Shown here: positions 38,145 to 56,800 of the stretch, one piece after another
How the letters are laid out: each line of letters opens with the position of its first letter
How positions within the stretch are numbered: position 1 is the stretch's first letter
Assembly: GCA_017651425.1 (NCBI GenBank)
Contig: JAGCCZ010000062.1
Span: 24,564 to 88,563, forward strand
Source: Bacteroidales bacterium
GTDB taxonomy: Bacteria > Bacteroidota > Bacteroidia > Bacteroidales > WCHB1-69
Length of the DNA: 64,000 nucleotides
Reading direction: 5' to 3'
Program-made: the position numbers and the translations under genes
Notes under the pieces: model-generated
Database searches by the model: none
Seen by the model: only the letters and a program-made list of their open reading frames with translations
What the model was told of the DNA's origin: nothing

Positions 38145-39257
38145 TTATTCTTTCGCACTATAACTCCTCACCACCTCCACCTTCTTCGTCTCAGGATCCG
38201 TGTACAGGATTTGCAACCGTTCCAAGGCCGTGTTTAAAACATATTCGTAGTCGCCATTTTGGAAATGGTATTCGTGTTTTGCGGCATCGTACCGCCCTTG
38301 CGTGACAATCAGATCCGGGGCGGAAGAGAACATCTTGTCCTTCTTCCACAAAAGGAGGCGATAGGAGCCGTTCGCAACGCTGTCAACACGGACGATGGAA
38401 TCTCCCGCCTCGAACTCCGACAACAGCCAACCTGGTTCCAGCAAGTATTTGGCCAAGACAGGGTTGTATTCCAGCTGTTTGTAACGGAACTTCTCGCCGT
38501 CCCAGGTGAAACGATGGTAAAAATCCGTCATGAACAAACCGCCGTCGGGGCCTCTCAGGTAGGCGAATTGCGGCATATAGAGATCCTTTCCCGTCAGTTC
38601 GAAGAAGAAGTTTTCTTCCCAAGCACCTTCGTAGTAAAGCGACGGCGAACCAGGGGTGCACTCAACGGAAAGATTAGCGGAAAAGCCCACTGCTTTTGGG
38701 TGAATTTCGGGGATGTGCTCAAAGATTTCGGCTGGCTTTAGCAATCCTGTTTTATCCATCGAAAAGGCATCCACACCTATATCGTATGACCAACCTTCCT
38801 GACGAAAGAAATACTCAACGAGATAAACCGACCCATCTGAAGATTCCAGTTGATACAACTTCCTTGGTTCCCGATAATAGTCCTCCATAAACACCCCCTG
38901 AAACGTTACATTGTTTTTGGTTTGATAGATGGTATGGAAGCTGATTGTGCTACCGAAGTCGCCGTCTTCCCAGCTATAAACTTTCAGCTTCCCATTGGGC
39001 GAGGTGAGAAGGGTAATGCGCAACTCATACAGCTTCGCGGACAAATCCGCATCGAAAGTGGTCTCATCGTGCTGCAGTCTCTCCACGAAGCTTACCAGCT
39101 CCTTGGCGTATGCCTTTCTTTCAGGAGAGTCATCCTCGAAGGTGAGGAAGTATTTCGTGGGGTCAGTAGTAACTTGTTTTTTCTTCTTGCAGCTTGACAA
39201 GACTACGACGAGTGCTATCACTAATACGACGAGTAATAGATGGTTGTTGTTAAACAT
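38145..39257 (-). CDS. hypothetical lipoprotein, island paralog family (member 1)
   Basis: Lipobox VVLSSCKKK. The C-terminal module IVRVDSVANGSYRLLLWKKDKMFSSAPDLIVTQG is shared with 42137..43318 and, more loosely, with 46767..47879. Confidence 0.65.
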   Translation of the reverse strand: MFNNNHLLLVVLVIALVVVLSSCKKKKQVTTDPTKYFLTFEDDSPERKAYAKELVSFVERLQHDETTFDADLSAKLYELRITLLTSPNGKLKVYSWEDGDFGSTISFHTIYQTKNNVTFQGVFMEDYYREPRKLYQLESSDGSVYLVEYFFRQEGWSYDIGVDAFSMDKTGLLKPAEIFEHIPEIHPKAVGFSANLSVECTPGSPSLYYEGAWEENFFFELTGKDLYMPQFAYLRGPDGGLFMTDFYHRFTWDGEKFRYKQLEYNPVLAKYLLEPGWLLSEFEAGDSIVRVDSVANGSYRLLLWKKDKMFSSAPDLIVTQGRYDAAKHEYHFQNGDYEYVLNTALERLQILYTDPETKKVEVVRSYSAKE

Positions 39258-41170: not shown

Positions 41171-42052
41171 TTATATGTTGAACCATTCCAAACTTTCTTC
41201 AAAAGTCTTTCGTAAGTCTTCAACGGATGGATCTGACGGCAATTTGTACTTTTCGTCAAGGAACGAATAGGCATATATATTCGCCAGTTTAACACCCACA
41301 AGCAACGCTTCTCCGTCTATGAGATTGACAGAAGTATTAACCGCCCTGAGCTCCTGACTGTTACGAATTGCAACTCCCACCTCCTTGTCCCATACCTTGA
41401 ATTGCCGAACGACCTCTGCTCTACCCAATCCCGTCAAATAATAAATTCCAAGGTCCACGTCACGAAAAATCGCGGGTGTTATCACATTTCCACGCTTGCC
41501 ACTGTATCCAAATCCCAATCTCGTCAAGTAAGCATCCTTGACACAGCAGTCATGAACAACGCCGAACAAGGTGTCACGTGCCTCATCGTCCGTAAATTCC
41601 CGTTCAGTATGGTATAAAACAGCCATATAGTCAATATGTGACAGTTTGTTCTTTTCTATGACATAATCTTTATCCTTGGCTAAACGCAGACAGATAAAGT
41701 AATAATTCCTGTCCGCATCAAATTGTCCCAAATTACTCTTAATAAAGTCTAACGGGAAATGACGGATGATAATCCAGGCGCATCTGTTTTCATGGTACCT
41801 CTCCCACAATTCTTTGACCTTCTGCTCAAAAGAAGGGTCCCACAAATCAAGCAACCTGGAATACACCCATTCCCTGTCGGACTTTCCGGAATCCAAAAAA
41901 GCATCCATGATCCGCTTTTGGTCCTCCCAGTCAAGACCGGAGAACCGCTTACGAATCTCGTTCCGCGACTCTGACACTTTGCCACTTTTCTTGTCGATAT
42001 AGTTCTTGATGACCGTGGCGATGGGATTGTTTCGTTTCACATTTCTGTACAT
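41171..42052 (-). CDS. hypothetical protein (293 aa, cytoplasmic)
   Basis: Clean ATG ORF, co-directional with 47-nt and 84-nt gaps to its neighbours. No motif I can assign. Confidence 0.6.
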   Translation of the reverse strand: MYRNVKRNNPIATVIKNYIDKKSGKVSESRNEIRKRFSGLDWEDQKRIMDAFLDSGKSDREWVYSRLLDLWDPSFEQKVKELWERYHENRCAWIIIRHFPLDFIKSNLGQFDADRNYYFICLRLAKDKDYVIEKNKLSHIDYMAVLYHTEREFTDDEARDTLFGVVHDCCVKDAYLTRLGFGYSGKRGNVITPAIFRDVDLGIYYLTGLGRAEVVRQFKVWDKEVGVAIRNSQELRAVNTSVNLIDGEALLVGVKLANIYAYSFLDEKYKLPSDPSVEDLRKTFEESLEWFNI

Positions 42053-42136
42053 TTCTACTATTCTTTCATTGGGCTTGACATACGAATAATGACTAATTCA
42101 AAAACAACGGGAATATTTAATCAGCATACATAGTTC

Positions 42137-43318
42137 CTAATCTTCAAAATCATACTTGGCAATCTGTTTCCCGTCTTTCAACACGTGCAAGTTATACTCA
42201 GAAACCCTATAATCATAATCCTTGTTCTTGAAAACGAACTGTTCATTTTTCTCATCCCTTGTGCCATTCGTGATGACCAGTTCTGGCTCCGAGTCCATTT
42301 TTTTGTCCGCAGCCCATGCAGCATACCGATAAACACCATCCTTCATCTTGTCAACCCTAATCAGATTTCTTTTGGTCTGTTTCAAGAATTCCATAGACTC
42401 GTAATCTTTCAAAGAAAGATGGAGAAATGGATTGGCAACGGATTTGTCGCCAATCTGCCGCATTTGTTTTCCATCCCACAAGTAGCACAAGTATCTGTCA
42501 TTCAAATAAACATCCTCTTCTGGAACGTACAGGACATTCGTTTTTTCATCAAAATAATCCAACCATTCAAACCCCATCCCACTTGTGCGACTATACCAGT
42601 CACCAGGATAAAACTCATAGGAAACAGCATGCTCCCTTCCACTTTCTTTCGTGTCCCCCTCATGACCGGCGACCTCAACCAGTCCCGAATCTGTTAGCAA
42701 ATAGACACTATATCCGATAAAGCATTCCCCTCCATAAGGAAACTCATCTGCTGTCAAATAATAATTGTCCCCTTTGACATGCAGCGTGCGCAAACTAAAA
42801 GGACAAGCCCCTGTCCAATCATGATAAAGTGAGGCTTGGTAATGTATTTTTCCAGCACGACGATACTGGACGAGCGTATATGCATCGCTCCATCGTCCAT
42901 CATGCTGTGGTTCCCATACATAAAACCGAATCATGCTGTCCTTGGAGTCGAGGATTTGAATATCCGCATAATGGCAGATGGAATCAAATGGGTAGTTCAT
43001 AGAAGAGGAATCAGACATCACCACCTCCTTAAAAAGGTCATAATCAAAATTATAGTAATCAGCTATCATATTTGAGATAGTGACACCGTCGGGGAAAAAG
43101 TAGTGTACCAGTTTCCACTCCGCCTCTTCCATCGAGGAGTAAGTAATCACCGAATCACAGTTCTCTTTGGTATATGAATGCCTTACGACAAGAGTCTTTT
43201 GCGGGAATCGCCGTTCAAATTGAGGCATATCCGTAAAACATTCCGATTGTCTGGATTTGTTTTGACAGGAAAACAACATTGTTGCCACGATGAAAATAAA
43301 AAGCGTTATTCGTTTCAT
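42137..43318 (-). CDS. hypothetical lipoprotein, island paralog family (member 2)
   Basis: ATG 43318 gives MKRITLFIFIVATMLFSCQNK. The track start 43399 overlaps the upstream gene. It shares the identical 15-mer ITYSSMEEAEWKLVH with member 3 and the C-terminal LIRVDKMKDGVYRYAAWAADKKMDSEPELVITNG with member 1. Confidence 0.65.
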   Translation of the reverse strand: MKRITLFIFIVATMLFSCQNKSRQSECFTDMPQFERRFPQKTLVVRHSYTKENCDSVITYSSMEEAEWKLVHYFFPDGVTISNMIADYYNFDYDLFKEVVMSDSSSMNYPFDSICHYADIQILDSKDSMIRFYVWEPQHDGRWSDAYTLVQYRRAGKIHYQASLYHDWTGACPFSLRTLHVKGDNYYLTADEFPYGGECFIGYSVYLLTDSGLVEVAGHEGDTKESGREHAVSYEFYPGDWYSRTSGMGFEWLDYFDEKTNVLYVPEEDVYLNDRYLCYLWDGKQMRQIGDKSVANPFLHLSLKDYESMEFLKQTKRNLIRVDKMKDGVYRYAAWAADKKMDSEPELVITNGTRDEKNEQFVFKNKDYDYRVSEYNLHVLKDGKQIAKYDFED

Positions 43319-43364
43319 ATTCGATGTTTGTCTGAATGTATTATTAACTTCCATGGTGAGGTCA

Positions 43365-44267
43365 TTACTTACACACAAACTTTTTGCCGTTCCAAACAAA
43401 TTTCCTATAATGATCGGTTATTTGGGTTGAACAGCAATATTCATCCATATCTTTATACACATACGTTCGGATATAAATGGCGGATTCGCTTGGATCAAAA
43501 TACCCTAACGTTCTAAAATCATTTTCTGCTAAAGTGTCATACATCTCGTCATTCATACAAATTTCCGTATAGAGGCTTTGGCCATCTTCTTCCCAACCGC
43601 TGAATCCACCTTTCTCTTTAAAAACGAAAGCTGGATGCAATCCTGCGCTGTCCAACTCGTAAGCACACAACCTGTAACTGTCTCCGCTACCCGTATATCC
43701 ATTGTATCCCCAGACAAAATACAGTGTGGAATAACCTGTATTAAAAGTGTAAATGGTGTCAGGCCGTAAGCAATAGTAGCAATCCTCGGCCCGTTCGGGT
43801 TCATCTGCCTTGTGCACTTTGCCATTCATCCTGTAATAGGCCAACATCATAGGCATCTCGTGTGCTGAATGAGGGAATAATCCATAACACCGTATATTTC
43901 CATCTTCGGAAGTGACAGGCTTACAAAGATCGCAGAAAGATTTATCCTCACTAAAAAGTGAATCGAACGGATAATCCATAGACGAAGGGTCGGACAAGAT
44001 TATTTTTTCAAAATCTTCATACGAACAGTTGGGCACAAAATGCACCAACTTCCACTCCGCCTCTTCCATGGAAGAGTAGGTGATTTCTGTGGAATCGTTG
44101 GCATGATGGTGAATCCAAACGAACTTTTGAGGAAATTTTTGTTCGAACTCGGGCGTTTGCATATCTAATGAAGCTACATTCTTGTTGTCGCAACTGAGCA
44201 AAACAGCAGCAAGAAAGAAGATTGATGCAACCAGTGACAGATGATTATTGAATAAATTCTCGCACAT
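43365..44267 (-). CDS. hypothetical lipoprotein, island paralog family (member 3, lacks the C-terminal module)
   Basis: Lipobox AAVLLSCDNK. The N-terminal region PEFEQKFPQK...ITYSSMEEAEWKLVH...DPSSMDYPFDS parallels member 2. Confidence 0.65.
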   Translation of the reverse strand: MCENLFNNHLSLVASIFFLAAVLLSCDNKNVASLDMQTPEFEQKFPQKFVWIHHHANDSTEITYSSMEEAEWKLVHFVPNCSYEDFEKIILSDPSSMDYPFDSLFSEDKSFCDLCKPVTSEDGNIRCYGLFPHSAHEMPMMLAYYRMNGKVHKADEPERAEDCYYCLRPDTIYTFNTGYSTLYFVWGYNGYTGSGDSYRLCAYELDSAGLHPAFVFKEKGGFSGWEEDGQSLYTEICMNDEMYDTLAENDFRTLGYFDPSESAIYIRTYVYKDMDEYCCSTQITDHYRKFVWNGKKFVCK

Positions 44268-44347
44268 GATTATAAAAATTAGGTTAAAAAAATACTGTTT
44301 ATCTTAGAATTTATGAATAACGATGCCAAACGCCCCATTTATCTTGA

Positions 44348-44551
44348 TTAATTACGGTATCTGGATCGAATCAGCAATACGCCAAGAATACAGATTATGA
44401 CAACGGTTCCGACACTGATGATACTATGAGTCACAATAGGAAGATTGAAAAACAGAGGAACAACCTGAGCGATAGCTATGAGGAAAAGTAATATTTCCGA
44501 ACCTTGTTGCAAACGTCTGTTCTTGTTTTGGTTGATGCTATTCGTAAACAC
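44348..44551 (-). CDS. possible small two-TM membrane protein
   Basis: 67 codons with a GTG start only. It has two hydrophobic stretches (ILLFLIAIAQVVPLFF, IISVGTVVIICILGVLLI) and lies 57 nt downstream of the rSAM gene. Confidence 0.35.
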   Translation of the reverse strand: MFTNSINQNKNRRLQQGSEILLFLIAIAQVVPLFFNLPIVTHSIISVGTVVIICILGVLLIRSRYRN

Positions 44552-44608
44552 AATCAGATATTTGAGCTTCCGTCCCAGAGCCTCGATGTTTTTGGGAAAC
44601 TGTCTAGA

Positions 44609-45700
44609 TCAAACTATTTTGTTGTACAGCAAATTAATTTTCTCAATCGCCTTTATCGCAAGTTTATTCTCGTAAGTATCTTCGGGGTTTGAAAGAATTC
44701 TATTCGCTGTCAAAAGTGCAGAAAAGACGGCACGGATTTTTGTAAGTTTGCATTTACTTTTATCTCTTCTATTTATTATCCCATTTGCCAGCATATTTGC
44801 GCCATAACAAGAATTACACACAGGTTCTAGATGGCAATTTTCCCGACACTCCGTGTCAACGAAACACTTTGGATTAGAGAAATCAATGTTATAGATTTCG
44901 GACATTTGATCATCAGAAAAGGTCATTGGGGTAAAAAAGGTACATGGATATCGCCGACCATCGCAATCATAGGCTGCCATATGTTCACCACACCCACACC
45001 ATTTATGTAATTCAGTTTCTTCTTCACATTTGTGAATCGGCATGTTGATAATAGGTGCAGGTTTGTATTGTGGATTATCAATATAGAATTGACACAATTT
45101 ACCAAGTTCTTCTATGATGACATTTACATGATTGTCATCGTCCCAATCTATTCCCTCAGCGAAATTTGATCCTGCTATGTTAAAACCTAATTTATGTATA
45201 TGAACAATATTGTCGTATATGTGATTGATCGTCTGCTTTGAAATAGTCATCTTCACTGTCTGAGTAGGCCAACATTCCAAGAAGAATGGAATATCAATAG
45301 CAGCATATGAATTGGAACGATTTATATTATGATCAGTTGAGGTACCATCAAGACTTAAACTTAACCAAAACTGTTCCTTATGCCGCCGTAGCCAATCTTT
45401 AATTTCCGAAGTCAACAATGTTCCGTTGGTAGTGGCAAAAAAAACATACTTGTTTCGCCACTGTTTCGTCCATGTCCATTCACAAATCTCGCGTATCGTA
45501 TCAAAAGCAACAAATGGTTCTCCCCCAAAAAGATCTATTTCCACTTCATCATAGTTCTGGTCATTAAGATAATTTTCTATAATAGATTTAGCGACGGACT
45601 TTGGCATTTTCATTGTTGATTTTGTGTTTTCGTAACAATAAACACAATTCAAATTGCAACTATGCGTTAATATCAGTGACAAATGGAATTTTCTATTCAT
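44609..45700 (-). CDS. radical SAM / SPASM-domain peptide maturase
   Basis: CNLNCVYC (the CxxxCxxC motif) at residues 15-22. C-terminal auxiliary-cluster cysteines CGCGEHMAAYDCDGRRYPC and CRENCHLEPVCNSCYG. It is immediately preceded by Cys-rich short ORFs. Confidence 0.9.
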   Translation of the reverse strand: MNRKFHLSLILTHSCNLNCVYCYENTKSTMKMPKSVAKSIIENYLNDQNYDEVEIDLFGGEPFVAFDTIREICEWTWTKQWRNKYVFFATTNGTLLTSEIKDWLRRHKEQFWLSLSLDGTSTDHNINRSNSYAAIDIPFFLECWPTQTVKMTISKQTINHIYDNIVHIHKLGFNIAGSNFAEGIDWDDDNHVNVIIEELGKLCQFYIDNPQYKPAPIINMPIHKCEEETELHKWCGCGEHMAAYDCDGRRYPCTFFTPMTFSDDQMSEIYNIDFSNPKCFVDTECRENCHLEPVCNSCYGANMLANGIINRRDKSKCKLTKIRAVFSALLTANRILSNPEDTYENKLAIKAIEKINLLYNKIV

Positions 45701-45869
45701 CTTTTTTGTATTTTTTTAACCCTGATAGTGTACCATCACAACCAGCAATATATTTTCCTTTACATGTATCGGCACATACCCCATTACAAGTCCCTTCACA
45801 ACCCACAAGCCAACGTGAACCGAAAGAAACATTACTCTGCACCCACTTCGCTAATAATTCATAAGCCAA
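45693..45869 (-). CDS. putative Cys-rich RiPP precursor 1 (58 codons, TTG start; not in ORF track)
   Basis: Hand translation: (M)AYELLAKWVQSNVSFGSRWLVGCEGTCNGVCADTCKGKYIAGCDGTLSGLKKYKKDE. It has CxxxCxxxCxxxC spacing. Its stop TAG (45695..45693) overlaps the rSAM ATG (45700..45698) by 8 nt. Confidence 0.5.
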   Translation of the reverse strand: MAYELLAKWVQSNVSFGSRWLVGCEGTCNGVCADTCKGKYIAGCDGTLSGLKKYKKDE

Positions 45870-46090
45870 ATAGTTTGTTTATTTAATTTATTATTTATCA
45901 CATTCGTAATCACAAACTTATCGTTTGAAGCCTTCATTACTCATTAAATCACAACCAATCCAGCCGGCCGTTTATTCATCACTACGCTCACAATCTCTTT
46001 CACCACAATCTCCATTGAAGCAAAACGTATAAAAATGAGGGGAAATCGAATAACAACCTTTTAAACCGCAAATTGACATGAAACCTTCTC

Positions 46091-46132
46091 ATTAAATAAA
46101 ATTTAGGGATAGCCATTAGTGCTATCCCTAAA
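46091..46132 (-). terminator. rho-independent terminator after precursor 2
   Basis: 12-bp perfect stem tttagggatagc / gctatccctaaa (46102..46132), followed on the minus strand by ttttatttaat. Confidence 0.85.
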
Positions 46133-46143
46133 TCAAATGTACG

Positions 46144-46302
46144 TTACGGATTTAAACCACCTGCCGGAGTTCCGTCACAACCGCCAACGCAGTCCCCAGA
46201 ACAGCTACCATCTGAACAATAAGCCCAACCCATGGTAGTTGTTCTTGTTTTGCCTACAATTTGCAAATCATCAAGCTTCTTGACGAGATTTGCATTCAAC
46301 AT
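46144..46302 (-). CDS. putative Cys-rich RiPP precursor 2
   Basis: MLNANLVKKLDDLQIVGKTRTTTMGWAYCSDGSCSGDCVGGCDGTPAGGLNP, taken from ATG 46302. Alternative starts are at 46314 and 46347. It shares W..C..G.C.G.C...C..GCDGT..G with precursor 1 and has its own hairpin terminator. Confidence 0.65.
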   Translation of the reverse strand: MLNANLVKKLDDLQIVGKTRTTTMGWAYCSDGSCSGDCVGGCDGTPAGGLNP

Positions 46303-46766
46303 TTTTGTTACCATAATACAAATTATTTGTTTTGTTGTTACCATCATTTTAAAACTAGGAAGACGGCATTATCCTATTCTTTTACTGTTTCTGTATTTAA
46401 AAATGGTTATCATTATCACTGTCATGACGCATTAAAAATAAGCCAATCAACAATAGCCAACCAAGCTAATAAGGATTCTAGCAGGAATAGCTTTCCCATA
46501 TTGTTTGTATTGGCCAGTTTGCTCACTCATAAAAGCATACGCCGCGTTATATCCCATCCGGCTCCGTCGGGTCTTGTTCTAAATCACTTTGCAAAGTTGC
46601 AAAATATGCCGCATAGAAACATTTGACAATATAAAGCATTTCTGTAACAATATCTTATACACCATCGCTTTGTTGCTTCGCACGTAATCACGCTCGTTTC
46701 TGTCAACCTTGCCAATGAATTGCTTTTTTGTCACTTTTTGCTCCTATGCAATAAAGAAGATAAAAC

Positions 46767-47879
46767 TCACAGCTGAGAGACCCATCTGAAGTCTCCAGAA
46801 TAAATCAGATTCTCTTCGGGGTCATAAACAAACAACTCTTCATGTTGCATACCATTCCTCCAACCATGATAGTACTCGTAACGATAGCCATTGTTGAAAA
46901 AAATGTATTTTTCGCCCAACGGTGAGCTTTCATCATCAGTCCGCCATTCGTCATGGGATATCAGAGTGTTGCTATACGACCATATTTGTTTGGTGCCGTT
47001 TTTTATAACAAGGTCGGGACTCCCCTCTTTTACCCCGCCATTCCAACATTTGTAAGTCCAGTCGTCCTCGCTTTGTTGCTCAATTCGTATGAAGTATTTG
47101 TCATTGCAGAATTCCACAGGTTCATCATATTTCTGCAACTCAAAACGCCGCTTGTTCCAATTATATTGGCGATATTTTAAAGGATTATCTATCAATGGCA
47201 TTCCTTTGAGAACATATAGTTCTTTCCTTAATCTACTGTAGATGAACACGGAATCATTTATCCCCTCGTTGAATGTCAACGACCCGCCCTGATCGTCCCA
47301 AGATAATTCAAGATTATCAGAAACGCTGTCTTTACTGGCAAAAGCCCCTTTTACTTTGCGCAATTCATTGTTTTCTATCTCATATACATAAAAATTGTAT
47401 GTTTCGCATGTCCCTTGATGCATGCTCCCTTGAAAATCTTCCAACAGATAATACTTGTCTGAATCGATATGACAAATTCGAGTAATATACCCATTGAAGT
47501 TTTCAATTTCCTCGCAGAAAACCTTTCCATTGGACCTGTATTGAAGCAATGTTTTGCACTCAAAACCCAAAGAAGGATTGCCTTCAAACCCGCACCTTTC
47601 CACGCTATAGGCTCGCACGTTGCCATCTTCTGAGGTGGCGATTCGTATATGAGAGAGTTTTTCTTCAAATCCATATTCAAGGGACTGAGGTTTTTCCTTG
47701 ATAAAATCGAAGACGGATTGCATGGCTTCGTCGGAATAAGAACCGCCTTCAGGCCATGCAAGCATCTTATTCAACTCTTCAGTGAATGTTCGTTCCTGAC
47801 GACTCTTATCACACCCACAAGAGACGAGGATCAATGCCATAGACAAACAGACTGTTTTAATATAATTTCGGGGTTTCAT
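46767..47879 (-). CDS. hypothetical lipoprotein, island paralog family (member 4, divergent)
   Basis: Lipobox LILVSCGCDK. Its architecture is like members 1-3 (..NVRAYSVE.., ..YFIRIEQQSEDDWTYKCWNGG..GSPDLVIKNG..). Confidence 0.65.
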   Translation of the reverse strand: MKPRNYIKTVCLSMALILVSCGCDKSRQERTFTEELNKMLAWPEGGSYSDEAMQSVFDFIKEKPQSLEYGFEEKLSHIRIATSEDGNVRAYSVERCGFEGNPSLGFECKTLLQYRSNGKVFCEEIENFNGYITRICHIDSDKYYLLEDFQGSMHQGTCETYNFYVYEIENNELRKVKGAFASKDSVSDNLELSWDDQGGSLTFNEGINDSVFIYSRLRKELYVLKGMPLIDNPLKYRQYNWNKRRFELQKYDEPVEFCNDKYFIRIEQQSEDDWTYKCWNGGVKEGSPDLVIKNGTKQIWSYSNTLISHDEWRTDDESSPLGEKYIFFNNGYRYEYYHGWRNGMQHEELFVYDPEENLIYSGDFRWVSQL

Positions 47880-47956
47880 ATTATTTGTTTTTTACGTTCC
47901 TATAACAAACAAATGCCATACATCTGAATCCTTTTTTTACAACATCCCACACTATT

Positions 47957-48247
47957 TCACTTCACCGTCTGCACCTCCGTTATCTTGTATTGGCCATCCT
48001 CTGCGATCTCGACAGTGACGGAGAACTTGAGGGTGACCTTGGAGCCTTTCGTGCCATAGAGCTCGGCGACTAAATCGTGCTCCAGCACCCGGGAAATGCG
48101 CTGCAGCAGCCCCACGTCAATAACCTCCCGACGGAAGATGTCGTAAACGTTCTGCCGGTGGCATCCCAGTCGTCGGGCGAACTCGCTGACGCTCAGACCT
48201 GATGCCTCGAAATATTCTTTCACTTTTTCGCCTGAGTGTGTTTTCAT
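47957..48247 (-). CDS. small XRE-type helix-turn-helix protein
   Basis: GLSVSEFARRLGCHRQNVYDIFRRE. It is the last gene of the kinase/phosphatase cassette, 21 nt after the PP2C gene. Confidence 0.7.
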   Translation of the reverse strand: MKTHSGEKVKEYFEASGLSVSEFARRLGCHRQNVYDIFRREVIDVGLLQRISRVLEHDLVAELYGTKGSKVTLKFSVTVEIAEDGQYKITEVQTVK

Positions 48248-48268: not shown

Positions 48269-49693
48269 CTACTTGCTACTCTGTAACAGGTCTTCCAATA
48301 CGCTTACAATTTTGCCGTTCGTGTCAAAAGTCATAAAACAGTGAACAAGGTACGACACTTCGGTTGAATCTTGTTTGACAACCTTGAAATCTTCAATGAA
48401 ATCTACAGACACATCCCCATTTGGCAATTGCCGACAACCCCAAGTCTCCCATTGAACATCCAGGTGTTTGTCAACGGCCCCCCTTTTATTGTCAAAATTT
48501 CCAAGAAGCTCAACTGCCTTTTCCTTGCTTATATCGGTGTAGTTGATGAAACGCCTGACAGTATCAGCATACATTTGTCCAAGAGCGTCAAAATTGTTTT
48601 TTTGTACGGCCTTCGTGTAATCATCAACCTTTTGCATCAGAACACTATTGTCTAACCGATTGTCCGAACTTGATTTTTCTGTTGAATTAGCCAAAGACAC
48701 CCGCATCAGATATTCTTCAAGTTTATGTATTCTCGCGTCTTTTGCTTTGGAAAACATCAGCATGGCGAAACAAGAGCCCAAAAGCAGAACACAAATTGAT
48801 GTCAGTATAGGAAGGATCACCTTATTCCCTTTTACTCTTTTCCCTTTTGGGATTTCTGCCACGATTTCCTCAACTACGCTATCATCTTGCAGATTCTCGT
48901 TCTCATCCATTATCGGGGCGATCTCTTCTTCCTCCGCCTGATACTCCATCAACACCACCGTAATATTGTCTTTTCCTCCTGCATTATTGGCGGCAGCAAT
49001 CAAGGCCTGCACCTTCTCTTCAATCGGGAGTTCTTGCTCCAATATCGCGACTATCTGCTCAGATGTAATCATGTCCGTCAGACCGTCGGAACAGAGCAGG
49101 AAAGTGGAATTGGGCAGAAGAGGGAATTCCTCCGCGTCAAGAAAACTTTGGTCATTGACACCGTGTCGTTCCTCTCCGACGGATCTGCTTATTTCGTTGC
49201 GACGAGGGTGGCGCATAGCCTGTTCTTCGGTCAACTCGTTAATTTCCTCGCAATAGCCGACATACGAGTGGTCATGGGAGAGTTTGAGAAGTTCCCCGTT
49301 ATGATATTGATACATTCTTGTGTCGCCCACGTGTACCATATCAAGCACCTTCCTATCCGCGTCAATCAATGCGGACGTAAGCACACAGCTCATATTGGGT
49401 CGGGCTGTGTCCAACTGGCGGCGGTCAAAGATGGCATTATTGGCACACACCACGGCCTGCTTTAGCAGCTCCAAACGCTCACCTCGATTGAACTCTTTCA
49501 AATAGGAAGGGATTTCCTTTTGTGCGATCTCGGCAGCAACCTCTCCGCCTTCATAACCACCCACGCCATCAATTACAATGACCAACACGGTGCTGTCGTC
49601 CAACTTTTCCGCCACGAAAGCATCTTCGTTGTTGGTGCGCCGTTTCCCAGCATCGGTATCTCCGAAAAACCGAATTTTTTCTACGTTCCTCAT
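48269..49693 (-). CDS. PP2C (PPM) Ser/Thr phosphatase with TM segment and extracytoplasmic C-terminal domain
   Basis: GDTDAGKRRTNNEDAF, VIDGVGGYEGGEVAA, LLCSDGLTD and GGKDNITVVL. TM segment ILPILTSICVLLLGSCFAMLMF. About 150-aa C-terminal domain of unknown type. Confidence 0.85.
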   Translation of the reverse strand: MRNVEKIRFFGDTDAGKRRTNNEDAFVAEKLDDSTVLVIVIDGVGGYEGGEVAAEIAQKEIPSYLKEFNRGERLELLKQAVVCANNAIFDRRQLDTARPNMSCVLTSALIDADRKVLDMVHVGDTRMYQYHNGELLKLSHDHSYVGYCEEINELTEEQAMRHPRRNEISRSVGEERHGVNDQSFLDAEEFPLLPNSTFLLCSDGLTDMITSEQIVAILEQELPIEEKVQALIAAANNAGGKDNITVVLMEYQAEEEEIAPIMDENENLQDDSVVEEIVAEIPKGKRVKGNKVILPILTSICVLLLGSCFAMLMFSKAKDARIHKLEEYLMRVSLANSTEKSSSDNRLDNSVLMQKVDDYTKAVQKNNFDALGQMYADTVRRFINYTDISKEKAVELLGNFDNKRGAVDKHLDVQWETWGCRQLPNGDVSVDFIEDFKVVKQDSTEVSYLVHCFMTFDTNGKIVSVLEDLLQSSK

Positions 49694-49696
49694 ATC

Positions 49697-50665
49697 TCAA
49701 ATTGTTTTCGCCATGAATTTTATGACCACTTCATTGTTCAGAACTATTGTTGACTTGGGAATCAACCTCACCCAATTGATGTGGGCATTTCTCTCACTCA
49801 ACTCCACATGTCTTTCGTTCAGCATTGTCGGCCCCCATGCTGCCAACTGAAACCCTATCTCCTTATGTTGAATCGCAACATGGGTCTCTTGCACCTTGTC
49901 GCTATTTATTTTGAGGATATTCGATCCATTCCGATGGTCACTTTTGCCAGAAATCATGATGTAGGGTTCGCGCATAGGCCACTCAAGGTTTTCCCATTGC
50001 AGCAAAGCCAGTTCCTTTTTCTTTTCTGGAATCAACTCACTGATCTTGTCCGGGTCTTCTTGCAGCATCTTATCGAAGGGATACAGCCGGATGCCCTCTC
50101 CCAAGACCTGTATGTCCCCCATATTCTGTTCTTCCAGCCTGCTGGTTCTCGGATTCCTGGTCTTTATCGTTGCATCCGGATCTTTAACCACTCTTGGGGC
50201 ATTGTCTGCGATTTCCACCTTGAACGGTATCGTGTAGCTCATATCTATTTTTATTTCCCCTTTGGGCACAGTGCCGTCAACAGTAAATTGGACACACCAT
50301 CTCGCATCCGTTGGCGTATATTTCACTTTCGGGTATCTATTTCCCAAACGTTCCAACATTTTATGCTTTAGTTCCAGACGACGTTTCCCCTTTCTTATCA
50401 AGGTGTAGATTCTCGCCAAAATAATCGGTCCCCATCTTTCAAAAAAAGGTGTCCTGACATGGTAGTCGTCAGGATGCATATAGATGATGAACATTGTAGG
50501 GAAAATCAACTCACTGGTTTCATCATCCGACTCCAAAATCATTTCTTGCTGGAATTTCTTCCCCAACAGTTTTTTTATGTTCCCTATTGTAATATTTCTT
50601 CCCTGTCCGGACTGTCTTTCCGACTCAAGGGACAATTTTTCCAAAATACCCATATCGTTATTCAT
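49697..50665 (-). CDS. FhaA-like protein (DUF3662-type N-domain plus degenerate FHA)
   Basis: N-terminal MGILEKL... and LIFPTMFIIYMHPDDY resemble the FhaA N-domain pattern (from memory). The C-terminal ISGKSD..ETHVAI..MLNERHV..STIVLNNEVVIKF is FHA-like, but the GR and SxxH motifs are degenerate. 8-nt overlap with the upstream FHA gene. Confidence 0.6.
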   Translation of the reverse strand: MNNDMGILEKLSLESERQSGQGRNITIGNIKKLLGKKFQQEMILESDDETSELIFPTMFIIYMHPDDYHVRTPFFERWGPIILARIYTLIRKGKRRLELKHKMLERLGNRYPKVKYTPTDARWCVQFTVDGTVPKGEIKIDMSYTIPFKVEIADNAPRVVKDPDATIKTRNPRTSRLEEQNMGDIQVLGEGIRLYPFDKMLQEDPDKISELIPEKKKELALLQWENLEWPMREPYIMISGKSDHRNGSNILKINSDKVQETHVAIQHKEIGFQLAAWGPTMLNERHVELSERNAHINWVRLIPKSTIVLNNEVVIKFMAKTI

Positions 50666-51467
50666 TTATATCTTTATAAACCAAGATTGTTTTTATAGCC
50701 AAACTATCCTTCACAATTATCTTGTCGCCATTTTGCAATGGAAACTTTGCGTTGACACTCTCACATCTGATAGTCTTTCCTCCGTTTATTAAGAGTGTCT
50801 TTCCAGGAAACGCACCACCTTCATCAACTTGGAAAAAGAACCCCGTTGTGTTTTCAAAACCGATATGCGCATGGTTCCTGCTGACACAACGGTATTCCTC
50901 TCGCAAAGGTGAAACGGGGTCATCATCAAAAAAGATATGGTTTTCCCTGAAAACGTTGTTTTTCTGGACAAAACGCCCGCGACCGATATTGTATGCGGGG
51001 ATTCTGCCGCTTGTAATCTCCTCAGACGAAAGCAGATATTTCTTTTTTAAGGGAGCAACCACACAACCATCCATAGCGACAATTCGGGCTTTCTTTACAG
51101 CGGGCGCTTTGACAATAGTGCATTCTTCCACCTCCAGGTATTCGAGGTTGTTGTCGCCAATCATAAAAAAGTTGTGATTGTCTTCTGCAGGTTTGCCCAT
51201 TTTAAAAGTCACCTGTTCAAATTCGAAGCCCTTTTGCGCAAGAGTTGAAAGCATCAAATCTCGATAGTTATCACTGTCATATTGGTCGAACTCGATTTGC
51301 TTCTCGCAATCAAGCCACACAATGAGTTGTCTGCCTTTTGCGGTACTCAGTTCTTCCATGATTCCAGTAAGCGTGGAGCAGATGTTGTTGACCAACGACT
51401 CCCTGTTGTCTAATCCGGCAGGTTTCCCACCTTCTTTTTTGAAGATATTTGAAAATATTTTTGACAT
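50658..51467 (-). CDS. FHA-domain protein
   Basis: C-terminal YNIGRGRF..., CVSRNHAHIGF, TLLINGGK and LQNGDKIIV. These are the canonical FHA G-R, S-x-x-H and N-G landmarks. Confidence 0.75.
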   Translation of the reverse strand: MSKIFSNIFKKEGGKPAGLDNRESLVNNICSTLTGIMEELSTAKGRQLIVWLDCEKQIEFDQYDSDNYRDLMLSTLAQKGFEFEQVTFKMGKPAEDNHNFFMIGDNNLEYLEVEECTIVKAPAVKKARIVAMDGCVVAPLKKKYLLSSEEITSGRIPAYNIGRGRFVQKNNVFRENHIFFDDDPVSPLREEYRCVSRNHAHIGFENTTGFFFQVDEGGAFPGKTLLINGGKTIRCESVNAKFPLQNGDKIIVKDSLAIKTILVYKDINE

Positions 51468-51502
51468 AGCTCTGTGTTTTGGGATGACATTGTCGTATAT
51501 AA

Positions 51503-53284
51503 CTATTTGCCTCCTATCGCCGCGTTTAATGCGTTGATTTCTTTGTTTTTGCTTTGGATTATTGACTGGAGTTCTTGTATCTTTTGATCCTTTTGTGTGA
51601 CAATACTATTCAACCTTTTCACCTCGGAGAAGTTGTCTGCTGACTTTTGATTAGACAATTGGGACTCAAGATTCTTGATTCGCTGATTTTTTTGCGTTAT
51701 CTGATTCCTTAGATTCGCAATCTCGGCTGCATTGTCCGAAGGCTTTTCTTTGGACAATTGATTCTCGAGGTTTCTGATTATTCGGTCTTTTTGCGAAATC
51801 AGATTGTTTAAGCGATTGATTTCATTCGAACTGACACCGGGAGACACTTGTGTCACTTCGTCATCTTGTAAATCTGATATGATTGTCCTGAGTTCATTGA
51901 TTTCATTATTGGCAGATGCAATAGCCTGATCCTTTTCTTTCAGTTTCCTGTCCCATTCCGCAGGACTATTGTTCCACGCATAAAGGGATGTCCCCACACC
52001 AAAAAGGCAAAAAAACGAGATCAATATCCACAAAGGGGTTCGTCTCTTGTTAAGTTGTTGCTGCATTGCAGTCAATTGTTTCTGCGAGTCATGTAATTGT
52101 TCCTGCGTTTCGCGCAAAGTCTGCTGAGTCCGATTGAGCGCGTTTTGTGTGCTATTCAACTGCTTGTTTAATGAAGCATTTGTATCTCGCAACTCATTTG
52201 CCCGTGCGGACAGCAACTTATTCTCAGATTTCAACTGATCTATTGCCATCTCAAATTTGACATTGTTGGTGTCCTTGCAATGAGCCTCTATGCATTCATA
52301 CAACTCCTTGCCGTTTCTGAACCGATCATTAGGATTTTTGCTCAGGCACTTCAAGATGACATCCTCCAGCCATTGGGGGTAATCACGTTCGTAGGTTTCT
52401 CCAGAAAATTTCTTTTCAAAGAATCCTTTGCGGGCAGATTCTATTGCAGGAGGCGGCCATTGCCTCAGGTGCGCATCCATCAGTCTCTCATCATCTGGAA
52501 ATGGATATTGACCCGCAAGCCAAGCGTAAAGAACTACTCCAAAGCTATATACATCTGATTTCTTAGTGGGTTCCGTTTTGCTATTACCGTTCCACAATTC
52601 AGGTGCTCTGGAAATTTCTGCGCCGCCATGGCAACGGCTGAGTGTTGGAGCCTCTTCTCCCTCGACGGCCATCCCAAAATCAATCAAAATGAAATTCCCG
52701 TCAGTACGACGCAGTATGTTTTTTAGATGGATATCATTGTGAATAACTTTATACCGTTCAATCAAGCCATTACGCATTTTTTCGTCCTTCACCACAGAGC
52801 CTACCACACATCCGTCTGGTAGTTTGTCCTTATCGGGATCCATCAGGAAACGATAAGCCTCTTCATGACAGTAAGCAAGCGCACTGCTGATTTGCACTGC
52901 CATCCGAAGCACTTCTTCTACAGGCACAAAATTCCCGTTCTCCTTCAAATATTCCGCCAAGTTGTCCCCCTGGATGTAATTTCTTTCCCAATAGGCGATA
53001 TGTTCAGACGGGAATTGCGAGTCCTGGAACGTGCCATAGGTATTGATACTCTCTATATGCGGGTGACTGCCGTTGCCAAGTTTCAACAGCACTTCGGTCT
53101 CCCGCAGGAACTTCACATATATCTTGTCCTTTTTAAGCTCTTCATCGTCTTTGGCGACAATAGGATCTTTCAGCACGCGAATAGCACGCACATGCCCCAA
53201 TTCCTTGTGACGGACCTTATAGACCTTGGCGAAAGAGCCGTCTTTGTCGCCGCCAAGGACTTCATATTCTTTTGGTACTGCCAT
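51503..53284 (-). CDS. Hanks-type Ser/Thr protein kinase with TM segment and extracytoplasmic coiled-coil repeats
   Basis: GSFAKVYKVRHK (P-loop/Lys), HNDIHLKNIL (catalytic loop), IDFGMAV, SRAPELW and SDVYSFGVVLY. TM segment LWILISFFCLFGVGTSLYAW. The C-terminus carries 33-aa repeats. Confidence 0.9.
   Translation of the reverse strand: MAVPKEYEVLGGDKDGSFAKVYKVRHKELGHVRAIRVLKDPIVAKDDEELKKDKIYVKFLRETEVLLKLGNGSHPHIESINTYGTFQDSQFPSEHIAYWERNYIQGDNLAEYLKENGNFVPVEEVLRMAVQISSALAYCHEEAYRFLMDPDKDKLPDGCVVGSVVKDEKMRNGLIERYKVIHNDIHLKNILRRTDGNFILIDFGMAVEGEEAPTLSRCHGGAEISRAPELWNGNSKTEPTKKSDVYSFGVVLYAWLAGQYPFPDDERLMDAHLRQWPPPAIESARKGFFEKKFSGETYERDYPQWLEDVILKCLSKNPNDRFRNGKELYECIEAHCKDTNNVKFEMAIDQLKSENKLLSARANELRDTNASLNKQLNSTQNALNRTQQTLRETQEQLHDSQKQLTAMQQQLNKRRTPLWILISFFCLFGVGTSLYAWNNSPAEWDRKLKEKDQAIASANNEINELRTIISDLQDDEVTQVSPGVSSNEINRLNNLISQKDRIIRNLENQLSKEKPSDNAAEIANLRNQITQKNQRIKNLESQLSNQKSADNFSEVKRLNSIVTQKDQKIQELQSIIQSKNKEINALNAAIGGK
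51506..51823 (-). repeat. in-frame ~99-nt (33-aa) tandem repeats encoding the kinase C-terminal coiled coil
   Basis: EINRLNNLISQKDRIIRNLENQLSKEKPSDNAA / EIANLRNQITQKNQRIKNLESQLSNQKSADNFS / EVKRLNSIVTQKDQKIQELQSII.... Confidence 0.8.
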
Positions 53285-53306
53285 AATTAGAAACTTTTAT
53301 AAGTGA

Positions 53307-53870
53307 TTAGAAACGGTGAATTAAAAGGATGACTCCGTTAACGGAATCTTGATGTGCAGTAGTTATTTTCCCTGTAGAAAAATCGTGGGTAAAAAAAAGT
53401 GTACGGCTATTCTGTTCGGGTGTACACGTCCAATAGATATCATATAATCGGACAACATCCCTATTCGAATATATCAACTTCATCTCATCCAACGTGGGAA
53501 TTCCTTTCCTTGTTACATAAAGGTCAAAATAGTAGTAAAGTTTTTGCCATCCTTTGTTCAGCACTGCCAATCCATGTTTGCCCCCGTCTCTTATATAAAC
53601 AACCTGATATTTTTCATCACCTACATCTATATAGTCTCCCACATTATACGTTTTCTCTTTGCCGCAATCCCCAATCAACACTTCCACCGAGACCACGGTT
53701 TTCCCCGAAAGCTCCTTATAGACATTGTAATACTTTTGTGCCGCATCACAATCACCGGCTTCCAACTGCTGCATAGCTTTGTCGAGGTAGTGGGAATAAT
53801 CTGTTTGGGCAAAGCAAGCAGTCAATGAATTTAAGATGAAAACACCGAACAATAAAATAATCCGTTTCAT
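53307..53870 (-). CDS. hypothetical secreted protein
   Basis: Signal peptide MKRIILLFGVFILNSLTACFAQ. It is sandwiched between the SEDS-PBP and kinase genes with gaps of 12 and 22 nt. Confidence 0.6.
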   Translation of the reverse strand: MKRIILLFGVFILNSLTACFAQTDYSHYLDKAMQQLEAGDCDAAQKYYNVYKELSGKTVVSVEVLIGDCGKEKTYNVGDYIDVGDEKYQVVYIRDGGKHGLAVLNKGWQKLYYYFDLYVTRKGIPTLDEMKLIYSNRDVVRLYDIYWTCTPEQNSRTLFFTHDFSTGKITTAHQDSVNGVILLIHRF

Positions 53871-53882
53871 AATAATTCTTTT

Positions 53883-56800
53883 TTATCTGTTAACATATCC
53901 GTTTGCATACAATGATTCCAAAATCGCATCTTTGGTCAGGCGGACGGCGGCACCGGAACCCGCTCCACGCTCTATGCGGACACATACTGCCAATGGATGT
54001 TTGCCATTCTGTCCCTCTACAAAGAACATATACCAACCGTCATTGATTTTTTGGGGTACTGAACCGACATAGCGATAACGTTCAGCCGTCCCTGTTTTCC
54101 CCCCAACTAATACTGGTAGGGGCGCGTTATTGCGAGCTTTTTGATTGGCAGACTCCGCCTTCATATATCCTTTCAAAACAGCGGCACTTTTAGGTGTCAA
54201 CAATTGCACTTCACCCTCATTCCGCAGCTTTTTTGCAAATTCACCTTTAGGCAATACATATTGTGTACATGGCATTTTGCCTTTATTCACCACCGCAGAT
54301 GCAACTCGCGCCATGTTGAGCGGCGAAGCTTGCAGTTCATAGTTTCGGTAACCTTGCCCCCAAGCCCAACGCCACTCCCCTTCATTCATGTTCTTATGGG
54401 TTCCATTTTCCGTACGCTTGGCATATTTTTCAAGTGCTACCTTTTGGTTTTGAGTTATTTTGTCTCGAAAGTGTTTTTGTTGCTCCGCATTAGTCTTTTT
54501 AGTGAAATAATACGGCACTGAATTCCCGATAGCGATGCCGGTGGCTTCATAGACACTGTCCAAGGCCCAGTACAAATCGTTGTCATTTACGAGATTGATG
54601 AAATAGCAGTTGGAGGACTCGACTATAGCCCACCACATATCCACTTTATCAACCGCTTTTTTATGTCTTGGGTAGAACAGGCCCTGATATGGCTCTTTTG
54701 CACGGCCTTTCTCGACAATATCATCCTTTGTCACCAAATAGGTCTTATCGGCAGCGGCAGTTCCCAGTTTTTGAAACCCGGCCATTGCAGACATCACTTT
54801 CGCCGTGGAGCCAGGCATGGTCTGATGGAGCAAACCCAAATCGCGCTCGGTATAAGCGCACCACCCTCCGTCTTTGTAATTGTCTGAATATCCGTGCGAG
54901 GCCTCCTCGCGTAATCGTTGGTAATCCGGCAACGGATAGTTCGCCGATGTCAGCAAATCCCCGTTTTGGGCATCCAACACAACGACAGAAATGCGCAACA
55001 GGTTCTTATTTGACAATCTTTTTTTCTGCACATATTCTGCGATTCGTTGTTGCATATCGGTCTGCAATTGGGCATCCACCGTGAGATAAAGGTCGTATGC
55101 CCCTTCTTGAACTTCCCGGTTATGTTTTCTCAATCTCCTACCGTGAATGCCATTTCGAAGATACTTCACCAATTTATGTTTATCCTCCAATGTGAGCGTG
55201 ACAAAGTCTTGTTTGTAGTAGTTCAAATATCGAGAATTGGCTTTGATTTTGTCGCTATGCAGGGTGACTTTTGCCGTAGGCTTTCCCTTTATATCATAAC
55301 CTCGCAGATAGGACTTGTGTTGGGATTCCGCCAAATACCCAATTGGATGTTTTTCGTTATATTCAAAAACAGGACCTAAGTTTTGGTCACCGACCATAAA
55401 GAAGAGATGTTCGGCACAAGGATAATAACGTTTGTTATTTCCATCACTTGCGGCAAGAAGGACTCCCTTACGATCATAGATATTTCCCGTTTTCATCTCC
55501 CTGTCAAGCAATTCAATACGCGGATTATACTCTATTGTGGGCCACCCGTCTTTTGATAGCGTGTATGCAGGTCTTATGAGAGTCTTATTTCTCGCAAAGC
55601 AGCCCAAGCCATAGTACGCCCAAACGCCGAGCGTGACAACGGCTATGAATCCAAAGATGAAAATGACAATCCCGCTTGTGTAATTGTATTCACCCACACT
55701 ATGTTTGCGGATTCTCTCTTGGCTTTCAGTCAGATGTTCCTGTTTGATGTTTTGGGAGAACGAGAGCACTATCCCTATAGCAAAAAGATTGACTATCATG
55801 CTCACGCGCCCATAGCTTAAGAAGGGGACAGTGATACCTGTAAGCGGAATAATGCCACTGCTGCCAAGAGCTATGATGAAAAATTGCACGACAGTCGCAA
55901 TCGAAACACCCATACAGAAATAAAAAGCAAACAAGTGTTTTACAGCATAGCCAACCTTTACAGTTCTCCAAAGAAGTAACATCAGAGCAGCGATAACAAG
56001 AGCCAACCCAATCCAGCCCGTCTGTTCTGCTATGGAAGAAAGTATCATATCCGTTTGGAAAGCAGGTATGAGGTTTGGGTTACCATCGCCCAGTCCTTGC
56101 CCGGAAAGACCGCCTGTAGCCATAGCCCAAAGCCCGTTGGCTACTTGGGTGTTGCTCACAGGTTTTGCATCTTTTCCGTGTGGATAATTGGAATCTTTAG
56201 GGTTGAAATCCAAATCTCCCCATGTGTTGACACACATGCTGGTGCGTTGTTCGAAACGTTCCCCAAAATCAGTATTCACATTTTTTGCAATAGCACCTCC
56301 AAAGACAAAAACGAAAACAAGCACATTAAAAACCAAAGCAGACTCAACGACCTGTTTGAGGCGGTACCTGCCATATAGAATCCAACAGAAAAACCAAAGG
56401 CAAGCAAGCAACAGAGATAATTTCGCCCCGGACAACCAGTAACCAACAACTATAAAAAAAGCGAAGGATAACACACCATATATTAACATGGCAAAGTCAC
56501 ACGTCAAGATTTTCTTCTTCTTTTCATCCTCTGTCAGATTGTCGAGATTGACTTTTGATTTCACTAATGAATAGAGCAATATAAAAGTAACGCCGATGAC
56601 CAATGCAGGCCCCATATCTTCCAGTATAAAGTACAAAAACAGAAGCAATAGCAAACCGACAATGACCCAACTGAGTGTTTTTACTTTCGCTCCGAAACGT
56701 TTGACATTTGGTTGAGAGTAGGCGACTATAAAATCTGCCTTTTGTGTAAAAAACGCTGCTATAAAGAACAATGTCAGATATTTGACTATTTCGCTCGGCT

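Follow-up and report, generated by a model that had tools for sequence, protein, structure and literature searches.

What is made by a radical S-adenosylmethionine (radical-SAM)/SPASM enzyme that is encoded next to small cysteine-rich open reading frames (ORFs) and falls outside every curated maturase family? The question is raised by a locus in a 64,000-nucleotide stretch of a Bacteroidales genome (assembly GCA_017651425.1, contig JAGCCZ010000062.1, positions 24,564 to 88,563), called the window below and numbered from its first nucleotide. The original prediction, made from the DNA letters, described a module for a peptide that is made on ribosomes and modified after translation (RiPP), in which a 363-aa maturase is preceded on the same strand by two short Cys-rich ORFs. 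All three are present where they had been placed: the enzyme at 44609..45700 (-), a 56-aa precursor that we call peptide A at 46144..46314 (-) and, between them, the core ORF of a second peptide, peptide B, at 45693..45869 (-). We favour, with moderate confidence, the view that they form a minimal RiPP cassette, in which peptide A would be the substrate of the enzyme and acquire thioether-type crosslinks, a hairpin would attenuate transcription after the precursor, and peptide B is a frame-broken copy.

The association between peptide and enzyme was analysed in two sets of 80 loci, one fetched from reference genomes and the other from metagenomes, together with contigs carrying close homologues (individual loci are cited by number, as L081). 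We counted the non-redundant loci having a small ORF with the pattern C-x3-C-x3-C on the same strand, at most 1.2 kb from the enzyme gene, and used the antisense strand as a control. Such a peptide was found in 9/9 loci whose enzyme is at least 60% identical to that of the window, compared to 0/9 on the antisense strand. The counts were 23/37 compared to 5/37 at 38-59% identity, 14/48 compared to 8/48 at 30-37%, and 9/61 compared to 7/61 below 30%. The middle bins are underestimated, since peptides with fewer Cys escape the pattern, as do those of L009 (...NSCGCSGDCGS) and L111 (...YCNCTGFGG). The predicted conservation of the short ORFs beside homologous enzymes thus holds for peptide A, a Cys-rich peptide being found in all nine close relatives. 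At the level of sequence, the locus has what is expected of a RiPP cassette in this respect, namely a small precursor made of leader and core and conserved beside a modifying enzyme. Over 40 neighbouring peptides, 213 of the 285 Cys-Cys spacings are exactly x3 (75%), position +2 is Gly in 62% and position +3 is Ser, Gly or Thr in 64%; Cys is the one feature common to all of them. Three peptides lying beside enzymes 32-42% identical pass the 20-bit cut-off of the Cys-rich repeat model TIGR04114, with 24.1, 22.4 and 30.0 bits. Judged by these spacings and matches, the wider clade overlaps the computationally defined CXXX-repeat class, while this locus does not qualify.

Peptide A was delineated from its ORF, its homologues, codon analysis and co-occurrence. 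The ORF spans 46144..46347 (-); the ATG at 46314 corresponds to the start that family members share and yields the same form as P0121, with a leader that begins MVTKMLNANLVKKLDDLQIVGK... and the core YCSDGSCSGDCVGGCDGTPAGG. Its homologues fall into 35 clusters, all unnamed and without a Pfam domain. Scanning 1.84 billion cluster representatives with phmmer, which uses no word index, returned 15 matches and few extra small peptides; two large matches were rejected as repeat artefacts. The N-terminal end of the family is conserved as M-[LV]-T-x-[LM]-L-N-x-x-L, the zone between this leader start and the core is variable, and the core itself is essentially invariant (Y-C-S-D-G-S-C-S-G-D-C-V-G-G-C-D-G-T-P-A-G-G-[FWLM]). 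Indeed, its 22 residues do not change in 26 aligned single-module homologues and nine two-module ones, the latter having two tandem copies of the core, while the leader varies. We compared 17 codons of the core in 8 distinct DNA versions: every position shows 2-5 codon variants, including TCN/AGY serine switches, and the amino acid is fixed at 15/17 codons, where change is purely synonymous. This variation of codons under fixed amino acids indicates that the core is under strong protein-level selection. The usual bacteriocin pattern is a conserved leader with a variable core, and the peptide A family shows the opposite. Two invariant Asp follow Cys1 and Cys2 by one and two residues, and a third acidic residue, replaced by Leu in some two-module precursors, follows Cys4, so that the Cys-acidic arrangements are C-x-D, C-xx-D and C-D. 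A Thr or Ser is found three residues past Cys4.

A terminator-like hairpin lies directly 3' of peptide A (46100..46134 (-)), with a 14-bp stem followed by the T-rich tail TTTTATTT. Its folding energy of -20.5 kcal/mol corresponds to a z-score of -4.8, and 0/200 shuffled sequences fold as well, in agreement with the strong terminator that had been noticed after this precursor. Stable hairpins of unrelated sequence occur right after the precursor in L087, L090, L083, L082, L081 and L001 (z -2.7 to -5.3), that is in 7/7 loci tested with the window included. In L081, the intact B-type gene is separated from the enzyme gene by a short gap, and that gap contains no hairpin (z = +0.5). The placement of the hairpin is thus conserved. 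This suggests that it is probably a partial terminator setting the ratio of precursor to enzyme. No RNA family came close to threshold in 44000..47000. Upstream of peptide A, sigma-70-type promoter sites were no commoner than in shuffles and the Bacteroidetes TAnnTTTG box was not found.

The identification of the enzyme as a radical-SAM/SPASM protein is well founded. The sequence CNLNCVYC occupies residues 15-22 and provides the CX3CX2C motif of the SAM-binding cluster (C15-N-L-N-C19-V-Y-C22), and the protein matches Pfam Radical_SAM (PF04055) with an E value of 2.5e-10 and 41 bits for a cut-off of 29.5, as well as Fer4_12. We aligned 21 homologues sharing 39-81% identity with the window enzyme. 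Eight C-terminal Cys are invariant or nearly so (C225, C235, C253, C285, C289, C295, C298 and C317), and every residue invariant across the 21 sequences is kept in the window enzyme. The SPASM motif is formed by C235-x12-G248-x4-C253; the block of four Cys, C285-x3-C289-x5-C295-x2-C298, followed by C317, departs in its spacing from the canonical CX2CX5CX3C.

The search against hidden Markov models (HMMs) of radical-SAM/SPASM subfamilies that had been proposed as a check returned RiPP maturases as the best NCBIfam matches, none of them at its cut-off. The top score is that of PapB (NF047865; 140.3 bits, cut-off 340), enzyme residues 7-310 aligning end to end with profile positions 5-328 of 330. 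The maturase of CXXX-repeat targets (TIGR04115) comes second, over its full length, with 126.3 bits for a cut-off of 350, followed by nif11, CcpM, QhpD and SCIFF, the SCIFF/CteB model TIGR03974 giving 75 bits for a cut-off of 425. Nine relatives (31-60% identity) behave in the same way, with 110-147 bits for the PapB model and 112-146 bits or no match for TIGR04115. Clustering with anaerobic sulfatase maturases (anSME), which the original prediction had named as the outcome that would speak against a RiPP enzyme, was not seen: TIGR03942 gives 50.5 bits for a cut-off of 349 and covers residues 13-130 alone. The link to CXXX-repeat systems that had been drawn for this locus therefore stands for the clade, with relatives' peptides passing TIGR04114, but not as membership of the family, the enzyme scoring 126 bits out of the 350 required and peptides A and B both staying below the repeat cut-off; for peptide A there is no match to TIGR04114 at all.

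The AlphaFold2 model of the enzyme has a mean pLDDT of 92. Foldseek placed CteB first among known structures (E 3e-17, TM-score 0.68), followed by anSME, TigE, ChlB and SuiB, the matches to the CteB and anSME folds having E values of 1e-17 to 1e-13. The profile of the enzyme family aligns only to positions 97-451 of the CteB chain (E 2e-31) and leaves the leader-recognition domain at 1-96 uncovered; the enzyme itself starts only 14 residues ahead of its CX3CX2C motif. Precord et al. (PMC10288494) defined six positions of CteB in proximity to the catalytic site. These are Y, F, T, S, T, F in the enzyme family and F, F, T, S, H, Q in CteB, so that the first four are kept or conservatively changed (4/6). 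From the HMM scores, the fold match, the profile alignment and the catalytic-site positions, we conclude that the enzyme is a complete SPASM maturase that has no N-terminal leader-recognition (RRE) domain, is kin to thioether-forming RiPP enzymes and stands outside each curated family.

We compared the cassette with the known systems to which it comes closest. The PapB/PapA system (the ranthipeptide freyrasin of Paenibacillus polymyxa, NF047865) likewise combines a radical-SAM/SPASM enzyme with a peptide rich in Cys and Asp. PapB joins Cys to Asp/Glu and accepts Cys-Xn-Asp/Glu with n = 0-6 in vitro (PMC9413430), a tolerance that covers the C-x-D, C-xx-D and C-D of peptide A, although none of these is C-x3-D. 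PapA consists of six Cys-x3-Asp units with a core unique to one producer, whereas peptide A has Cys-x3/4-Cys spacing and an invariant core; the host of PapB belongs to Bacillota, that of the cassette is Bacteroidota-like. The CXXX-repeat systems (TIGR04115 maturase with TIGR04114/TIGR04117 peptides) are similar in the second-best enzyme score and in the x3 spacing seen across the clade, but their targets are a long degenerate repeat while peptide A is a single four-Cys module of fixed sequence; no paper on the chemistry of this reference family was found. CteB/SCIFF (thermocellin; PDB 5WGG/5WHY) is the closest solved structure and has the same core and SPASM architecture at 22-23% identity, but the enzyme lacks the leader-binding domain that CteB has at its N-terminus (chain positions 1-96). 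QhpD, also a radical-SAM/SPASM enzyme, crosslinks the small subunit of quinohemoprotein amine dehydrogenase by making Cys-Asp and Cys-Glu thioethers in the small Cys-rich polypeptide QhpC (PMC11002830); its model gives 77 bits for a cut-off of 453, and the surroundings of the cassette contain no amine dehydrogenase genes. Finally, anSME (PDB 4K36-4K39) resembles the enzyme in length, in lacking a leader-binding domain and in its eight-Cys SPASM pattern, which in the enzyme may likewise be fully ligated by Cys, and is its second-best fold, but the identity is 17-18%, the peptides have no sulfatase motif and no sulfatase gene lies nearby. The cassette thus resembles the PapB, CXXX-repeat and SCIFF systems but, by its HMM scores, the lack of an RRE domain and the scores of its own peptides against the repeat model, belongs to none of them. 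No publication on this cassette or its product was found, and the original remark that no product of this type is characterized agrees with our literature search.

The intergenic region between peptide A and the enzyme changes one part of the original prediction, the presence of two precursors with dissimilar leaders. The ORF of peptide B has 58 codons from a TTG (WLVGCEGTCNGVCADTCKGKYIAGCDGTLSG...; 58 aa), offers TTG or GTG starts only and overlaps the start of the enzyme gene, its stop and the enzyme ATG sharing ATGAATAG. Four Cys at x3 spacing occur once in the six frames of the window, in peptide B (0.11 expected), and the matches of the peptide to TIGR04114 (14.2 bits, cut-off 20) and TIGR04117 are weak, at 14-15 bits. 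The region homologous to the start of B-type genes is the ATG at 45937, which opens a 28-codon ORF, MKASNDKFVITNVINNKLNKQTIWLMNY, with its stop at 45851 (45851..45937 (-)). The start of this leader remnant can be aligned with the ATG at which the intact B-type genes of L081 and L092 begin, the window having a gap of 17 nt, and three-frame translation shows that the Cys-rich part runs on in a different frame. L081 and L092, which are 81-82% identical loci, have an intact 66-aa second precursor between peptide A and the enzyme (MIENNRVIVISKQLNANLTKSLTELQIEGKK...CECSGCCSNTCDGDCYGGCDGSTKG), with a leader that resembles that of peptide A. Intact B-type genes of 66-67 aa exist elsewhere and form four clusters, and peptide B with its frame restored is collinear with the B-type P0156-P0159 and with the A-type precursors. 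The apparent dissimilarity of the leader thus arises from the frame break and not from a second leader type.

The break is real and fixed, and not an assembly error, since it is found in assemblies from other samples: the sequence from peptide A to the enzyme is identical in the three that span it (L171-L173), and a fourth, L086, which begins within the spacer and covers all of peptide B, differs by one base upstream of the leader remnant. Peptide B is not among the called genes of L171 or L172. It is most likely a pseudogene or a leaderless remnant and is probably not made in normal form; no slippery-site pattern indicative of programmed frameshifting was seen, as judged by reading the junction only. 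Between the hairpin and peptide B lies a further ATG ORF of 35 aa (45972..46079 (-); MSICGLKGCYSISPHFYTFCFNGDCGERDCERSDE), which ends in three tandem Cys-x3-Asp/Glu units. It is the sole match to (C-x3-[DE])x3 in the six frames of the 64 kb, any match being found in 0/200 shuffles, and these units correspond to the published substrate motif of PapB. The ORF is identical in L171-L173, has one substitution in the 20 residues covered by L086, is absent from L081 and is confined to this lineage. A third precursor, or the decayed form of one, is a possible reading of this putative gene.

Several relatives illustrate the diversity of the peptides found beside such enzymes. In the cultured type strain Phocaeicola massiliensis DSM 17679 (L009:5953-7328), a 42%-identical enzyme is followed after 45 nt by an ORF of 47 aa, which has ...NSCGCSGDCGSNWMQS at its end and contains the CSGDC element of the peptide A core; this strain is a possible experimental host. 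The paralogous enzyme of L111:2992-4205 (39% identical) differs in the sequence of its SPASM region; after it come, in this order, a 40-aa ORF, MEKFEISKATLDRLNELVAQNQEPQNTIVDDYCNCTGFGG, and a gene whose product is 66% identical to a 300-aa lipoprotein of the window. A very Cys- and Asp-rich peptide, ...CEPWCDCDHDCDWCCDSECDCCDSECDAW, with 10 Cys and 11 acidic residues in the 29 positions of its core, lies beside a 47%-identical enzyme in L003:5395-5550. The enzyme of L044 (Paenibacillus), considered as a candidate for a true PapB orthologue in the fetched loci, has 474 aa and an N-terminal extension. In more distant relatives (L138:2514-2966, L139:2437-2847, L140:57-509 and L147:1997-2458, L139 matching an Acidobacteriaceae genome contig), the CxxxC-repeat proteins beside the enzyme start with twin-arginine signal peptides (..RRQFLRNAMKVGGAAALLL..), which suggests that they would be exported after modification in the cytoplasm.

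The surroundings of the cassette provide no obvious partner. Neither the LSGGQ signature nor a GxxGxGK[ST] Walker A motif of an ABC exporter is present in any ORF of at least 150 aa in the 64 kb, and Pfam scans of the neighbours, within about 6 kb, detected no peptidase or exporter, so that neither the C39 peptidase nor the ABC exporter reported as missing in the original prediction has come to light. No protease, exporter or other partner conserved across relatives was found in the fetched loci either; the leader protease and/or dedicated exporter that RiPP clusters are also expected to contain is thus lacking here. A 67-codon ORF (44348..44551), already considered doubtful, was rejected as a partner: it has a GTG start, it is interrupted by an in-frame stop in the homologous stretch of L086, no gene is called there in L171, and it is absent downstream of an 81%-identical enzyme.

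Four paralogous predicted lipoproteins flank the cassette (46767..47879, 43365..44267, 42137..43399 and 38145..39257, all on the minus strand). They match no Pfam or NCBIfam family and are 24-38% identical in the pairs that match. Homologues of the 300-aa lipoprotein adjoin relatives of the enzyme in L081, L086, L111 and L003, once beside an enzyme only 39% identical, which could reflect a functional link or merely a shared variable region. The G+C content is 0.35-0.42 over the cassette and its lipoprotein neighbours (42000..48000), compared to 0.45-0.48 on either side; for the cassette itself it is 0.35-0.40, compared to about 0.46. In L086, the enzyme is 100% identical to that of the window but the downstream genes have diverged (L086:1427-1775), the 300-aa lipoprotein being 57% identical, a pattern that suggests recombination with a breakpoint close behind the enzyme, at about 44400 of the window. 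Genes for a PP2C phosphatase and a helix-turn-helix protein lie upstream and a Tpt1 gene downstream, PP2C and Tpt1 likewise flanking the neighbourhood of the cassette in L082. A run of genes on one strand, 48269..58298 (-), codes for a PP2C phosphatase (474 aa), two unknown proteins, a Ser/Thr kinase of 593 aa, an unknown protein of 187 aa and a protein of 1471 aa in which an FtsW/RodA domain is fused to a penicillin-binding transpeptidase. This run resembles the actinobacterial cluster of kinase, phosphatase, RodA and penicillin-binding protein.

Taken as a peptide maturation system, the cassette could work as follows. The amphipathic N-terminal leader of peptide A (M-V/L-T-x-L/M-L-N-x-x-L...) would dock on the enzyme directly, with no separate leader-binding domain. 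The SAM-binding [4Fe-4S] cluster and two auxiliary clusters would then serve to take hydrogen atoms from the core YCSDGSCSGDCVGGCDGTPAGG, and the Cys sulfurs would be joined to nearby side-chain or backbone carbons to form thioether bridges. Thioether crosslinking is the most likely chemistry in our analysis, since PapB, QhpD and CteB all join a Cys sulfur to carbon and since Asp residues are suitably placed in the core; two to four bridges are predicted. The likeliest acceptors would be the two invariant Asp that follow Cys1 and Cys2, in a PapB-like reaction, and a CteB-type Cys-Thr bridge would be possible at CDGT. By stopping most transcripts after peptide A, the hairpin would let the precursor outnumber the enzyme. 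Removal of the leader and export, if any, would depend on unlinked functions, as no protease or exporter is linked to the cassette. Peptide B would derive, through its frame break, from a second type of precursor, of which relatives have intact copies.

Several observations weigh against this reading. The enzyme and its nine relatives score far under the PapB and TIGR04115 cut-offs, and no member of the family is known to be characterized. Positions 5 and 6 near the catalytic site are T and F in place of the H and Q of CteB, and the SPASM region contains eight Cys, like a fully ligated sulfatase maturase, where CteB has seven (PMC10352776). The peptides of some relatives (L101, L112 and L018) have no acidic residue at all, so that a Cys-Asp linkage cannot be the chemistry of the whole clade. 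In addition, bacteriocin-like RiPPs seldom have an invariant core, the cassette has neither a protease nor an exporter nearby and no recognizable promoter precedes peptide A. Some of these points would fit a different chemistry or role for the same cassette, such as C-C or C-O crosslinking, epimerisation or Cys oxidation, or a product of conserved function (a metal-binding peptide, a redox cofactor or a signal) in place of a thioether bacteriocin, which we regard as possible, if rather doubtful. The core of peptide A stays invariant under purifying selection while the leaders drift, a pattern known from cofactor-type precursors such as PqqA, MftA and SCIFF, and the arrangement C-x4-C-x3-C-x3-C, together with the invariant Asp and Gly, could serve for metal binding. 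The twin-arginine signal peptides on the CxxxC-repeat proteins of acidobacterial relatives point in the same direction, since the Tat pathway typically exports substrates already folded or loaded with a cofactor, as do the lack of clade-wide conservation of the acidic residues and the position of the enzyme outside every curated family. On the other hand, the characterized families nearest by sequence and by fold (PapB, QhpD and SCIFF/CteB) all form Cys thioethers, and Cys is the sole feature that all the neighbouring peptides share.

It appears improbable that all of the cassette has become a non-functional relic in this genome. The frame break in peptide B, the possibly decayed third Cys-rich ORF and the location in a region of low G+C content at a recombination breakpoint would be in line with decay, but the enzyme keeps all the residues invariant across the 21 aligned sequences, peptide A is intact with the invariant core of its family, and four other assemblies contain the enzyme, peptide A and the spacer between A and B in identical or almost identical form. 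Still less credible is the idea that the enzyme matures a protein, in the manner of anSME or another non-RiPP SPASM enzyme, with the small ORFs being incidental. Several homologues bear the JGI label 'sulfatase maturation enzyme AslB', and sulfatase maturase, likewise short and devoid of an RRE domain, is the second-best structural match. This explanation is largely refuted by the score of 50.5 bits out of 349 against TIGR03942, over the N-terminal part only, by the co-occurrence of peptides with the enzyme (9/9 versus 0/9) and by the protein-level selection on the core. Moreover, the C/S-x-P-x-R motif of sulfatase-maturase substrates (C/S-x-P/A-x-R) is absent from peptides A and B and from the 35-aa ORF, and there is no adjacent sulfatase. 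The reading that we prefer thus remains a minimal RiPP cassette in which peptide A would be crosslinked by the enzyme.

We tentatively propose, as a possibility to which we give limited weight, that the A-type peptide is not a bacteriocin but gives Prevotellaceae-like gut bacteria a small molecule of conserved function, for example a metal-binding peptide that carries modifications, a redox cofactor or a signal. It would have a 22-residue core fixed by selection and be made by a family of enzymes that lack a leader domain and stand outside the curated families, with possibly an undescribed pattern or chemistry of crosslinks. A 2026 survey of rumen isolates found ranthipeptides, as detected by the antiSMASH rule TIGR03973, to be largely absent from Bacteroidota (2/254 clusters; PMC13289728), and a 2023 survey left most 'single radical-SAM' regions of Bacteroidales unexplained (PMC10352776). 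The cassette described here escapes standard detection, its enzyme being below the cut-off of every curated family. A compact enzyme devoid of a leader-binding domain, together with a short and defined substrate, could also provide a tool for peptide crosslinking. A core frozen by selection in a cassette of two genes may point to a conserved physiological role and not to warfare between strains. The significance of the finding would be higher if this core marks a product that binds a metal or resembles a cofactor.

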